Source: a virus. From it: DNA of 64,000 bases. Position numbers and translations under genes: made by a program. Location of the stretch: the IMG/VR virus record IMGVR_UViG_3300036715_003254, positions 1 through 64,000 of that record. One strand, written 5' to 3'. Below the pieces are notes generated by a model, which ran no database searches, was not told the DNA's origin, and worked only from the letters and a program-made list of their open reading frames with translations. Shown here piece by piece: positions 14,226 to 18,033 of this stretch (within the stretch, counting starts at the first letter, position 1; each line of letters begins with the position of its first letter).

Positions 14226-14636
14226 TTAATTGCCATCGCCTCTTCTTATTAAATCTCTTTCTTTTATTGTTTCTCTCTTTTCGTATTGTTTTTTACCTCT
14301 ACAAAATCCAACTTTTAGCCTAATAACTGTTTTTTCGTCTTGATATAACTCGAGAGGTATAATAGTAGTTCCCTTTTCAGAAAGAAATTTCATCATTTTC
14401 TCTCTTTCTTTCTTAGTACAGAGAACTGTCTTTAACCTTGTAGGATCGTCAACCTTTCCTATATGAAATTTCGTATAGACACCTTTAGAGTCAATCATAC
14501 AATATTCACCTTTTAAGTTCGCTCGGTGTTCTCTGATGGCCTTTACCTCTTGTCCAAAAAGTATCAAGGAACACTCAAGCTCCTTTTCGATTGTATAATC
14601 GAATTTCGCTTTTGTGTTCTTAGCGAATGATATCAT
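14226..14636 (-). CDS. smpB: SsrA-binding protein SmpB (divergent)
   Basis: NxKAKFDY, LxGQEVKAIR, DPTR, KGTTIIPLELY, RGKKQYEKRETIKERD. Confidence 0.9.
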   Translation of the reverse strand: MISFAKNTKAKFDYTIEKELECSLILFGQEVKAIREHRANLKGEYCMIDSKGVYTKFHIGKVDDPTRLKTVLCTKKEREKMMKFLSEKGTTIIPLELYQDEKTVIRLKVGFCRGKKQYEKRETIKERDLIRRGDGN

Positions 14637-15034
14637 ATACCTAACACCTGTTTAGATAGTTCTGATAGACTTTTAGGATTATACAGACCATCAAAATTTT
14701 GTTTAAAATGAGCGTTTATTTCTCCTAGCGATTTTGGAACAGCAGGAAGAGATTTTTCAGAAACTAGCTTTTTAATTCCATTTACTACTTCATCGTCATT
14801 CATTTGTTTTGGAAGATAAGATTCATAAAGCGCCCTTTCCGAGTCTTTCAAATATTCGTTCTTCAACAAGTTTCTAATTACTTGAACACATTCACCGTCA
14901 GTACTCTCCCTGTTACCTTTATTCTTTCCTGGAGCCATCACTTCTCCAAGAAGGAACGATAGATCTTCTTTTGTTGGTAAGTTGTTTTTTCTAGCTATAT
15001 ACAAGTCTCCATATATTTTTGCTTGAATACCCAT
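14633..15034 (-). CDS. YqeY/GatB-domain protein
   Basis: ...LSFLLGEV...TDGECVQVI...ExALYESYLPKQMNDDEV, the YqeY pattern. Confidence 0.75.
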   Translation of the reverse strand: MGIQAKIYGDLYIARKNNLPTKEDLSFLLGEVMAPGKNKGNRESTDGECVQVIRNLLKNEYLKDSERALYESYLPKQMNDDEVVNGIKKLVSEKSLPAVPKSLGEINAHFKQNFDGLYNPKSLSELSKQVLGI

Positions 15035-15233: not shown

Positions 15234-15517
15234 TAAAATCCTTTACAATAAGTTTCAGTTTTTATTTCACAGTTTCTACCATTAAATGGTACTATTATTT
15301 CTACACAGCCAAGTTCTAATAGTTTTTCAGCCAGAATTTTATTTTTTCTACCCGCAGCTCTATATTGAGCACCGTCATCAATATAATTATAGTAATAATC
15401 GATTTGGTTAGCAAGTTCAATAGCTTTAGCTATATTTTCTTCTGAAACGCCTTCTTCGAAAATAATTTTAGAAGTTTGGAAAGTTTTGATATCGTTTTCG
15501 ATAGTTTTCATTTTCAA
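15233..15517 (-). CDS. hypothetical protein
   Basis: ORF right after the promoter at 15540. Confidence 0.6.
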   Translation of the reverse strand: MKMKTIENDIKTFQTSKIIFEEGVSEENIAKAIELANQIDYYYNYIDDGAQYRAAGRKNKILAEKLLELGCVEIIVPFNGRNCEIKTETYCKGF

Positions 15518-15539
15518 GCCTTTTTACTTAATTTGAGAA

Positions 15540-15572
15540 ATTATAACTAAAAATTTCTTAAACTAATCTTAA
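15540..15572 (-). promoter_or_regulatory. host sigma70-type promoter driving the yqeY-smpB-DUF6948 cluster
   Basis: TTAAG...TTTAAG-N-TTTAGT-TATAAT. Confidence 0.7.
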
Positions 15573-15610
15573 ATTTCAGCAAAATTAAAAATTAAGGTTA
15601 ATTTAAGAAA

Positions 15611-15898
15611 TGGTGGACGATACGGCATCGAAGCCGTGTTATCCTGATATCTTCGTTAAGAAATAGTTAAAACAAAATCGCACTTGAAACGATTTTGAGT
15701 TCAAATAGGAGTTTTACAATGTTTTTAGAGAAAAGTGAAAAGAAAGGAAAAGAAAAAATTCAACTTCGTAGCAAAAGGAGTTGTTTCTTGTTAAGCTGCC
15801 AACTCCGCTGCAGGTTTAAAGTTTGTATTGTTTGCACTTATTTGTTTTCAAGTGTATTTCTTACCTACACAATAACAGGATCTTACCCTTAACCGCCC
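15611..15898 (-). ncRNA. ssrA: tmRNA (one-piece, 288 nt); tag ANNTNFKPAAELAA* at 15835-15791
   Basis: 5' GGGCGGU pairs with AUCGUCC-A-CCA, giving the G3:U alanine determinant; T-arm ACGGC-UUCGAU-GCCGU; UAAGU before the GCA resume codon; tag ends LAA-stop; SmpB nearby. Confidence 0.92.
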
Positions 15899-15907
15899 GT
15901 GTTTAAA

Positions 15908-16056
15908 TGGAAGCTGGTTTCATTGTTTAAGCAATGTTCCCAGCTGAGACAACAACTATACGCACACCCTTAAAACTATGCGATCCTTTGCTGCCGAAGG
16001 ATTTCTCGAGACATTGAAGTAGAGGTGCACTTACTTCTGAATACTCAATGAGAAAT
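15908..16056 (-). ncRNA. candidate multi-hairpin RNA just upstream of the tmRNA
   Basis: Stems GAAGUA/UACUUC, AUCCUU/AAGGAU, CGCAUA/UGUGCG, AGCUGG/CCAGCU; ends ...CUUCCA. Confidence 0.4.
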
Positions 16057-16066
16057 TATTCGAATG

Positions 16067-16108
16067 ACTTTCTTCGATGGCTATTCTCGAATAGCCATCG
16101 AAGAAAGT
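16067..16108. repeat. perfect 20-bp inverted repeat
   Basis: ACTTTCTTCGATGGCTATTC-TC-GAATAGCCATCGAAGAAAGT. Confidence 0.9.
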
Positions 16109-16126
16109 TATTAAGTGCTTCATTAA

Positions 16127-16300
16127 ACAATCAACGGGTAGTTACTCCCGTGTATCCATCTAGCCTCTTCCTATCATTGAAAGAGGTTACTGATAACTAA
16201 ATGGACTTTTTATTAAGCACACAGTCAGCGGCGCTATTTGACGCCGCATATCCGTCTAGCCTCTTTCGACAAAAGAGGTTACTGGCAACTAGATGGACTT
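16127..16300 (-). ncRNA. two tandem copies of a ~80-nt structured RNA motif
   Basis: Each copy reads AAGUCCAUYUAG-UURYCAGUAA-CCUCUUU-loop-AAGAGG-CUAGAYGGAUA-hairpin-UGAYUGU. Confidence 0.65.
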
Positions 16301-16347
16301 ATTTCTAAAGCCTAGCACAAAGGTGTATTATTCGGCTTTAGATCGTT

Positions 16348-16551
16348 TTATTTTGTAGCGTTTGCTTCAGCTTTTTTAGCTTCAGCTGCTTTTTTTGCTT
16401 CAGCTTTTTTAGCTTTTCTTTCTTCAGCTTTTTTAGCTTTTTTTGATTCGACTTTTTCAGTTTTGTTTTCATCAGCTTTTTTAGCTTCAGCTGCAAAACC
16501 TACAGAAGCAAGACCAGCTATAACAAGAAGGCTTACAAGAACTTTTTTCAT
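16348..16551 (-). CDS. small exported Lys/Ala-rich protein (Asr/acid-shock-like composition)
   Basis: Signal peptide MKKVLVSLLVIAGLASVGFA followed by AEAKK repeats; promoter -10 at 16603-16608. Confidence 0.75.
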   Translation of the reverse strand: MKKVLVSLLVIAGLASVGFAAEAKKADENKTEKVESKKAKKAEERKAKKAEAKKAAEAKKAEANATK

Positions 16552-16677
16552 TTTTATCTCCTTTTATATAGAAAGCGATTATTTATCACTTTCTAAAGTC
16601 AAATTATATTCTAAAAAAGTTTAAAATAAAAAGTTTTTTAGAAATTATTTTGAAGTCAACTTCTATTTCGGATGATA

Positions 16678-18033
16678 TCAAAAACTTTGACTTGTGAACG
16701 CTTCAAATAATTCATTGTCTTTCATTAGCGTGCTTTCGGCTGGAGAAGTTTCTTCTATTGTCCCAGCGGCGTCGAAGAATTGCATTCGTTTAAAGTTTAC
16801 GCCAATCAATATTTTAGATAGGTCGCCTGTATTCCTATTTTTTCTAATTGATAGAATTATCTGTCCATTCTTTCTCATTTCATCGTTAGATATCATAAGA
16901 GTAAGAGTGTCAGCTGTCATAACAAAACCGAGAGAATCTGAAACGGTGTCCTCGGTTGCATCTATATTGCCGTAAGAACTTCTATTCAACTGAACGGCTG
17001 TCACAACTGGTAAATTTTGTTTCTTAGCAAATCCGTGACACTCTTCGGCAACAGATTTCATAAGGCTATAAGTGTTACCGAATGTTCCTAAACTTCCTCT
17101 TGAAGACTTCATCAAGCCTATATAGTCTATAATAACTAAATCAGGTACAAAGTCCTTTTTGTTCTTAAGGTCAGTTATAAGACCATTAAGAGTCACAATA
17201 TCCATAGATCCAGCAGGATACTCTTTAATTACAAGTTTTCCTAGTTGTGGTCTAACTTCTTCAAATTTCGATTTCAAGACTGTTTTGTCTATTTTCGATA
17301 ACTCAAAAAGATCTATATTAAGAATATTAGCATCTATTCTTTTCGATATTTCTAGTTCTGACATTTCTAGTGTAATATACAGAACATTCTTTTTCTTTAA
17401 TAAGTTAGAAGCTGCTGTATGGACCAAAAGAGCAGATTTACCTCCGTGTGATGGTGAAGCAAAAATGTTTAAAGTCTTTGGTCGGAAGCCGCCTAGTTTC
17501 TTATCGAACTCTCCAATACCGGAAGTATATCCGAAATTCTTTTTATTATAGTACTCGATCCTTTCAGATATTTCAGAATTATAATCGTGTCCTATATCAG
17601 AATCAAAGTGTATCTTAAGGGCTTCTTCTATCATAACAGGTATTTGAGTAAGCTCACCCTGTTTTTGCATTATTTTAGCCGAAGAAAGAATAGCGTCTTG
17701 TAGTTCTTTTAGCTTGACAAACTTTTCAGTTTCTTCAACCATATACTGCAAATTATGTATAGGAGTTGAGTCAACGAATATTTCTTTGAAATGACTCAGA
17801 ATGCCTTTTTGAAAATCTCTAGACTCAGAGTATTTTGGATCATTTTTTATAAACAGACCTATTTCTTTTGGTCTAGGGTATTCTTCTGTCCTTTCAAAAT
17901 AAGACTTTATAGCCGAAAAAATTTCAGCGTTTTCGACTTTAGAAAAATGTGTTCGCTTTAAATGAGTGAATACCTTACTGAAATATTCCGGGGAATAAAG
18001 TAAGGAGTGTAGAATTTGTTCTTCCATGTACAT
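16678..18033 (-). CDS. gp41: replicative DnaB-like helicase (T4 gp41-like)
   Basis: Walker A SPSHGGKS, YITLEMSE, IIDYIGLM, TAVQLNRS, KNR. Confidence 0.93.
   Translation of the reverse strand: MYMEEQILHSLLYSPEYFSKVFTHLKRTHFSKVENAEIFSAIKSYFERTEEYPRPKEIGLFIKNDPKYSESRDFQKGILSHFKEIFVDSTPIHNLQYMVEETEKFVKLKELQDAILSSAKIMQKQGELTQIPVMIEEALKIHFDSDIGHDYNSEISERIEYYNKKNFGYTSGIGEFDKKLGGFRPKTLNIFASPSHGGKSALLVHTAASNLLKKKNVLYITLEMSELEISKRIDANILNIDLFELSKIDKTVLKSKFEEVRPQLGKLVIKEYPAGSMDIVTLNGLITDLKNKKDFVPDLVIIDYIGLMKSSRGSLGTFGNTYSLMKSVAEECHGFAKKQNLPVVTAVQLNRSSYGNIDATEDTVSDSLGFVMTADTLTLMISNDEMRKNGQIILSIRKNRNTGDLSKILIGVNFKRMQFFDAAGTIEETSPAESTLMKDNELFEAFTSQSF

Follow-up and report, generated by a model that had tools for sequence, protein, structure and literature searches.

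A candidate RNA element: two tandem copies of a folded module upstream of the tmRNA gene in an uncultured T4-like phage

An uncultured T4-like phage carries two head-to-tail direct repeats of 92 nt between a small ORF and its tmRNA gene. The two copies, units A and B, are 84% identical by column, and each folds on its own into a bulged hairpin followed by a short GC hairpin. They favour the minus strand, they differ from one another in a pattern that is not neutral, they belong to no catalogued RNA family, and no other copies were found in the genome or in the collections searched. The stretch analyzed (the window) makes up the opening 64 kb of an IMG/VR virus record of 138,481 bp that is rated 94% complete. 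We tentatively read the units as a duplicated, cis-acting, factor-recognised RNA module of an untranslated transcript, a possible interpretation that we would not call probable. If functional, the module would be a new RNA element for the little-known non-coding RNA clusters around the tRNA and tmRNA genes of large phages, and it could reveal the means by which a phage controls or protects the transcript carrying its own ribosome-rescue RNA. For the present it is a documented candidate that RNA-motif searches of larger metagenome collections could take up, and not yet a discovery.

Table 1. Features in and around the two repeat units. Positions are those of the window; the two arms of a helix are given in the order in which they are read on the minus strand.
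Feature	Position	Strand	Basis or remark
Helicase gene	16678..18033	-	gp41-type replicative helicase
Small ORF, 67 aa	16348..16551	-	ORF list and translation; N-terminus signal-peptide-like, tail a Lys/Ala-rich repeat
Hairpin H0	16304..16342	-	9-bp stem UCUAAAGCC/GGCUUUAGA, 21-nt loop; sequence and fold
Unit A	16212..16303	-	sequence and fold; covariance model 107.5 bits
Unit A, P1	16298-16289 with 16259-16250	-	A-C mismatch at 16294/16254
Unit A, bulge	16288-16279	-	UUGCCAGUAA
Unit A, P2	16278-16272 with 16266-16260	-	CCUCUUU with AAAGAGG
Unit A, P3	16247-16242 with 16233-16228	-	GCGGCG/CGCCGC
Unit A, tail	16227-16212	-	begins UGACUGU
Unit B	16120..16211	-	sequence and fold; covariance model 109.2 bits
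Unit B, P1	16206-16197 with 16163-16154	-	
Unit B, bulge	16196-16187	-	UUAUCAGUAA
Unit B, P2	16186-16180 with 16170-16164	-	CCUCUUU with GAAGAGG
Unit B, P3	16151-16147 with 16138-16134	-	ACGGG/CCCGU
Unit B, tail	16133-16120	-	begins UGAUUGU
24-bp inverted repeat (palindrome)	16063..16112	.	96% complementary, 2-nt loop; directly behind unit B
Phage tmRNA, 288 nt	15611..15898	-	acceptor stem GGGCGGU/AUCGUCC with G3-U, T-arm, CCA end, tag frame
YqeY/GatB-C-terminal-like protein	14633..15034	-	PF09424 25.5 bits, just below the cut-off of 27; PHROG 1460 'tRNA amidotransferase', E 3e-14
SmpB gene	14226..14636	-	PF01668, 109.7 bits

The order of features along the minus strand is helicase, 67-aa ORF, hairpin H0, unit A, unit B, palindrome, a leader of about 165 nt, tmRNA, three small ORFs and SmpB, and all ORFs of at least 100 aa between 11988 and 21903 lie on that same strand. 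The helicase has its closest cultured relatives among Campylobacter T4-like phages, at 36.8% identity. The 67-aa ORF has no match in a PHROG search, and its best Pfam match, to DUF7857, is sub-threshold (17.4 bits against a cut-off of 27). The tmRNA starts 221 nt downstream of unit B and has a tag frame of ANNTNFKPAAELAA-stop, so that the sequence-only reading made before this analysis, which had placed the motif upstream of a tmRNA, was right as far as the letters can be read. Standard annotation would overlook this gene: ARAGORN calls no tmRNA at 15611-15898, and the Rfam model RF00023 scores 13.5 bits against a gathering score of 47, with E values of 0.0058 and 1.4e-4 in separate scans. One of the three small ORFs between tmRNA and SmpB is the YqeY-like gene of Table 1, which suggests a small translation-related module. 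Small proteins encoded nearby also include a DUF6948 Sm-like protein and the products of a 94-aa and a 65-aa ORF. An identical SmpB is carried by six other contigs, and one contig of 1892 nt carries an SmpB that is 66% identical.

Each unit consists of a 10-bp helix P1, a one-sided bulge of 10 nt, a 7-bp helix P2, a 2-nt joint, the short GC hairpin P3 and an AU-rich tail; P1, bulge and P2 together make a 17-bp hairpin that is interrupted by the one-sided bulge. Folded alone, units A and B reach minimum free energies of -29.9 and -27.2 kcal/mol, and the 226-nt stretch that holds them folds better than every one of 200 dinucleotide shuffles, with z scores of -5.94 for the minus and -5.53 for the plus strand. 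One unit aligns on the other in an in-genome blastn search at E values of 4e-10 and 3e-9. The tandem duplication with a strong fold inside each unit, as first described from the letters, is therefore borne out, and the conserved bulge, a P2 with different loops in the two units and the retained pairing of P3 were all recovered in the per-unit folds. Standard pairs occupy 43 of the 44 pair cells on the minus strand. The one cell that fails is in unit A, where an A faces a C halfway along P1; the shared 10-bp P1 that had been described, GUCCAUYUAG with CUAGAYGGAU, is present in both folds, and its consensus had hidden this mismatch. The range flagged at the outset, 16127-16340, also reaches into the 9-bp hairpin H0 (16342-16304), a separate structure and no copy of either unit. 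Folding the whole stretch at once gives an alternative that encloses both units, with perfect pairing between the P1 5' arm of unit A and the P1 3' arm of unit B. This closing fold is better by 3.8 kcal/mol than two separate units, so that the two repeats may also work as a single domain-swapped RNA.

For the units, pair cells, energies and the direction of the neighbouring genes speak mildly for the minus strand. Standard pairs fill 43 of 44 cells on the minus strand versus 40 of 44 on the plus strand, and the summed unit energies are -57.1 versus -50.1 kcal/mol. This is the strand that had been inferred at the outset, and it is the strand of all neighbouring genes.

The differences between the two copies are distributed very unevenly. 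They are few in the 5' arm of P1 (1 of 10 columns), the bulge (2 of 10, so that 8 of 10 letters are kept), the two arms of P2 (0 of 7 on the 5' side and 1 of 7 on the 3' side) and the 3' arm of P1 (1 of 10); they are frequent in the P2 loop (7 of 9), the P3 arms (4 of 10), the P3 loop (6 of 10) and the tail (7 of 16). Taken together, the core of P1, bulge and P2 stems differs in 5 of 44 columns (39 kept), against 26 of 52 in loops, P3, joint and tails (Fisher p 6e-5), and a substitution pattern that is not neutral is thereby supported. Within P3, the four changed letters among ten in the stem all fall in two fully compensated pairs, G-C to A-U and C-G to G-C, and a simple chance estimate for such compensation in two of the five aligned pairs is about 0.005. 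P3 thus looks like a hairpin that is kept for its shape. No compensatory change is found in P1 and P2, where two one-sided changes keep a pair and one breaks it; from the pattern of core differences, the bulged hairpin appears to be kept for its letters, a constraint at the level of sequence and not of mere pairing. The description of the motif as conserved structure with changed sequence therefore holds for the two P3 pairs and fails for P1 and P2, which lack compensation, and a covariation shuffle control, with two sequences only, is not significant (109/500). Conservation of the bulged hairpin letter by letter would fit a site for a specific factor or else gene conversion between neighbours, and the near-identity of the core could be due to such conversion between adjacent repeats instead of selection.

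A pseudoknot between bulge and tail had also been proposed. The pairing amounts to 4 bp in unit A and 5 bp in unit B, lengths that are reached by 91% and 56%, respectively, of 20,000 shuffled tails; being at the level of chance, the pseudoknot was dropped. A third unit upstream of unit A was likewise considered and not retained, as the homology there is too weak to call.

The same measurements bear on the proposal of an element that acts as DNA next to the replicative helicase gene (an origin, a site of recombination or a palindrome bound by protein), which we think very unlikely. The gp41-type helicase gene does end 375 nt from nested inverted repeats, and the plus-strand fold is overall nearly as good as that of the minus strand. 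Against this, G-U pairs favour one strand, the compensatory changes in P3 preserve a hairpin and not a sequence, and there is no turn of the GC skew near 16 kb. The P2 loops moreover differ by 4 nt, so that the arms of P1 stand 32 nt apart in one unit and 36 nt in the other. An RNA hairpin can accommodate such a difference without harm, but it sits poorly with a DNA site whose half-sites must keep a fixed distance.

It was also possible that the units are passive hairpins of a 3' untranslated region, terminators or barriers to 3' exonucleases behind the small ORF, that were duplicated by slippage and have no specific factor; we hold this to be rather unlikely. Unit A begins 45 nt downstream of the stop codon of the 67-aa ORF, with hairpin H0 in between, and the helix kept by compensation is the GC-rich P3. 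A match to a terminator had been named in advance as a result that would speak against a novel functional motif, and the scan is divided on this point: P3 and tail of unit B were the only terminator-like site flagged within the units (5 pairs, 4 of them G-C, tail TGATTGTTTA), whereas P3 of unit A was not flagged and its tail is not T-rich. The scanned region holds two terminator-like sites against 1.1 expected (sd 1.2) in shuffles, and the match in unit B is thus not above chance. A barrier role would also leave unexplained why the bulge (8 of 10 letters) and the letters of the stems are conserved amid drifting loops and tails.

Sequencing runs provided a view of variation among strains. All or part of the stretch is present in six DNA runs, none of them recorded as RNA, and the comparison was made on contigs. 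Runs X3 and X4 show no other letters over 15848-16700 and 15863-16449, respectively; run X3 may be the source sample. Runs X5 and X6, which are possibly one data set, hold one contig of 337 nt from a related strain, covering 15862-16201 with 22 other letters and five gaps. Nineteen of the 22 differences are listed by position; the other three and all five gaps could lie in the core. Of the listed differences, 3 fall in 201 nt of tmRNA and leader, 13 in 57 nt of palindrome and spacer, and 3 in 82 nt of unit B; on this count the leader of the tmRNA is at least as conserved as unit B. The three in unit B are all in its last 19 nt, two in the tail and one in P3, and none is listed in 16139-16201, which comprises the loop and 5' arm of P3, the 3' arm of P1, P2, the bulge and part of the 5' arm of P1. 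The chance of this distribution is about 0.012 if the three unlisted differences are also outside 16139-16201. One tail change converts the UGAUUGU of unit B to the UGACUGU of unit A. The change at 16138 breaks the loop-closing pair of P3 in unit B, with no compensation among the listed differences.

Some contigs of run X4 have a different arrangement. Two contigs, each single and of low depth, carry junctions of 15888 with 16346 and of 16209 with 16468, the latter with 27 letters between that resemble the end of the ORF; the joints are weak, at 80% likeness and with one side of 25 letters (less than 30). Another contig of this run matches only 16303-16417 and then diverges from the window. 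These contigs are a hint that co-occurring close relatives may lack or replace one or both units, in which case the module would be dispensable. In runs X3 and X4, the Lys/Ala-rich repeat of the small ORF (16369-16446) has a summed contig depth of 77-383, with flanks at 7-25; this low-complexity coding repeat resembles many other sequences in the samples.

The units match no catalogued family. Among the 4227 families of Rfam 15 there are no matches at gathering in the whole window. When the cut-off is relaxed to E values up to 10, 21 matches appear in 15300-16700, and the units are overlapped by just one of them, to the lysine riboswitch, with 11 bits against a gathering score of 30 (E 7.1). 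With nothing at gathering and nothing meaningful at this looser limit, the units are not a catalogued riboswitch, ribozyme, sRNA or leader, in agreement with the first impression that no known riboswitch or ribozyme was present. A covariance model, a check that had been suggested together with the motif, was built from units A and B only. Over the 138-kb genome it finds these two units, the next score being 11.6 bits (E 3.6), and it has brought up no homologue in the collections searched. A loose structural descriptor passes 5 of 107 CAGUAA sites in the genome, with long stems in units A and B only, and low-stringency blastn yields no further unit copy in the 138 kb. By model, descriptor and antisense scan, the bulged hairpin recurs nowhere else in the genome, start codons included; the antisense targets of the bulge are the units' own complement and scattered coding matches.

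Searches of other collections were equally negative. The region 15550-16350 has no blastn match among 50,697 phage records. With the narrower query 16120-16345, 18 phage records are returned, all at E values of at least 3 and with at most 20% coverage, and there is no match among 72,556 plasmid records. One motif-pattern scan of IMG/VR gave two loci, both within coding sequence of another phage and not homologues; another gave three loci with covariance-model scores of at most 9.3 bits; further motif-pattern scans, and a scan with the tmRNA 3'-end pattern, gave no loci. A pattern scan of GTDB contigs gave three loci, the best of which scores 14.9 bits over model positions 12-52 only, with unpaired flanks. 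We judge these three to be chance matches. The three GTDB genomes behind loci L016-L018 have no match. The helicase has relatives at one IMG/VR locus (45% identity) and at five JGI metagenome loci (25-55%); over these six loci the covariance model, with filters off, attains at best 18 bits with P1 and P2 skipped, and the 68-kb record behind locus L002 has no match. An SmpB pattern has 13 matches in IMG/VR, none of them a relative, and a spurious plus-strand ORF of 50 aa over unit B, used as a proxy query, found no protein. Among the papers listed by a literature search none concerns an RNA motif upstream of a phage tmRNA, which does not prove that nothing has been published. The element is uncatalogued and an orphan, with one locus in one uncultured phage lineage.

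Such isolation would fit a recent tandem duplication without function, its uneven differences being due to gene conversion or mosaic origin. In addition to the single locus in a single phage lineage, the units are missing from the helicase relatives at 25-55% identity, and co-occurring strains may be without them if the weak joints in run X4 are real. We nevertheless regard this explanation as quite unlikely: two pairs in P3 are fully compensated, the differences are strongly clustered outside the core (p 6e-5), and the sequence is identical in contigs of X3 and X4, of which X3 may be the source sample.

We give very little credence to the reading as a tandem riboswitch or self-cleaving ribozyme. 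The units do resemble an aptamer in having an unpaired bulge that is conserved together with the stems on either side, while the loops vary; aptamers in tandem are known, and the hairpin after each unit could act as an expression platform, that of unit B having been flagged as terminator-like. Nevertheless, there is no match beyond noise among the Rfam families even at E values up to 10, no pseudoknot or tertiary pairing is supported, and the per-unit folds as we read them offer no alternative pairing of P1 with P3 common to both units. Downstream lies only an RNA gene, with no protein gene to regulate. Nothing thus points specifically to the aptamer or ribozyme that had been envisaged. A protein sponge had been named beside these. 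Sponge RNAs of the CsrB/RsmZ type present a GGA motif in many hairpin loops; in the per-unit folds GGA is in no loop, the GGA of unit B lying in the P2 stem, and a sponge of this type was set aside. As a whole, the suggestion of a functional RNA in the sequence-only reading keeps its support from the repeat, the fold, the strand, the non-neutral pattern and the want of an Rfam family, and loses its pseudoknot and its leaning to an aptamer or ribozyme.

The interpretation that we tentatively prefer, that of a duplicated cis-acting module, would work as follows. One RNA module would have been duplicated locally in the 830-nt untranslated stretch between the small ORF and the tmRNA gene, and the units would be transcribed on the minus strand like the neighbouring genes. 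A factor from phage or host, most likely a protein, would recognise the bulged hairpin by its sequence, and P3 would be a purely structural hairpin. Two copies in series could then control the fate of the transcript ahead of the 24-bp palindrome and the tmRNA. Their output might be a choice of read-through versus termination in the manner of nut or put sites, or else processing or stability. Besides the fold, the strand, the sparing of the core, the compensated pairs of P3, the unequal spacing of the P1 arms and the positions of the listed differences in the related strain, we count in its favour the layout: a hairpin, the two modules and then the 24-bp palindrome, all in untranslated sequence that precedes an RNA gene. 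No candidate binding protein for the bulged hairpin was identified.

Several known systems resemble parts of this arrangement. The hairpins cut by RNase III in T7 and the nut sites of lambda are related irregular hairpins, with an internal loop or bulge, that lie between phage transcription units and are recognised by proteins. They share with the present units the occurrence of related copies of an irregular bulged hairpin; however, they are scattered between genes and not side by side, and there is no sequence likeness. In T4, rnaC and rnaD are small structured stable RNAs of the tRNA cluster. By description, which is the only level at which the two were compared, they too are small structured RNAs beside translation-related RNA genes, but they are single genes whereas the units here are in tandem. 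Close in outline are the putL and putR RNAs of the lambdoid phage HK022, cis-acting, factor-independent antitermination RNAs that are described as about 70 nt long, with two bulged stem-loops at a short bifurcation and two sequence-related copies per genome (PMC9378689). They act on transcription through downstream terminators (PMC9378689). An antitermination RNA of the put type suppresses such terminators by binding the zinc-binding domain of the beta-prime subunit of RNA polymerase. The units here, at about 75 nt, likewise have two stem-loops, a bulge and a 2-nt joint, and the two related copies lie ahead of strong hairpins; the likeness is confined to outline. Set against it, the put sites stand behind two separate early promoters instead of side by side, their sequences show no likeness to the units, and the phages are of unrelated types with unrelated hosts.

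The transcript might instead act in trans. Cut in its AU-rich linkers into units of about 90 nt, it could furnish small RNAs or decoys that soak up a protein, in the boldest form an anti-defence mimic of a host RNA antitoxin, comparable to the pseudo-ToxI repeats of phage PhiTE; this we consider somewhat improbable. In its account of type III toxin-antitoxin loci such as those of ToxI and CptI, PMC5086642 gives a folded RNA in tandem direct repeats, with a palindrome behind them, as the defining layout, and the two 92-nt units, 84% identical, are tandem direct nucleotide repeats of this sort. Phage PhiTE is described as bearing a toxin-less pseudo-ToxI array of changing copy number (PMC3475682), which shows that a phage can carry antitoxin-like repeats and vary their number. 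In the present phage, AU-rich single strands separate the units, and copy number may vary between strains, as the weak joint of 16209 to 16468 would have it. However, no toxin gene accompanies the units: PF13958, the ToxN family, has no matches at E values up to 1 in the 138-kb genome, and there is no minus-strand ORF of at least 40 aa between 16120 and 15518. There are two copies only, and no host counterpart was found, either as a look-alike repeat in the 72,556 plasmid records or in the GTDB pattern scan, whose three matches are chance. The repeats of ToxI and CptI are also far shorter, with about half the length of the 92-nt unit. Finally, the solved antitoxins described in PMC5086642 all form a pseudoknot, which is unsupported in these units.

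A further-reaching claim, which we think unlikely, is that units A and B are the founding members of a phage RNA class not described before, a tandem two-stem module with a sequence-specific bulge. Such a class would be either a put-like antiterminator ahead of the tmRNA, RNA-only or protein-assisted, in a T4-type phage of a non-enteric host, or a transcript cut into units of about 90 nt that neutralise a host defence nuclease, an antitoxin mimic of twice the known size.

Two minor observations concern the sequences between and behind the units. On the minus strand, AU-rich stretches of similar wording directly precede each of the three large hairpins, at 16304-16316 (GGCUUUAGAAAUAA), 16212-16223 (GCUUAAUAAAAA) and 16105-16116 (GCACUUAAUAAC). 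We take them to bear a loose resemblance to boxA-type sites, and they may be mere AT-rich linker. The palindrome has no T-run after it on the minus strand and is absent from the list of the terminator scan. Together with the 7-nt spacer (16063-16119) it accounts for 13 of the 19 listed differences in the 337-nt contig of the related strain, 9 of them in the palindrome itself, and this segment is a hot spot of variation in which the stem is retained. Compensation is seen in one pair at least (16069 T>C with 16106 A>G), and the change 16066 G>A mends the sole imperfect pair.
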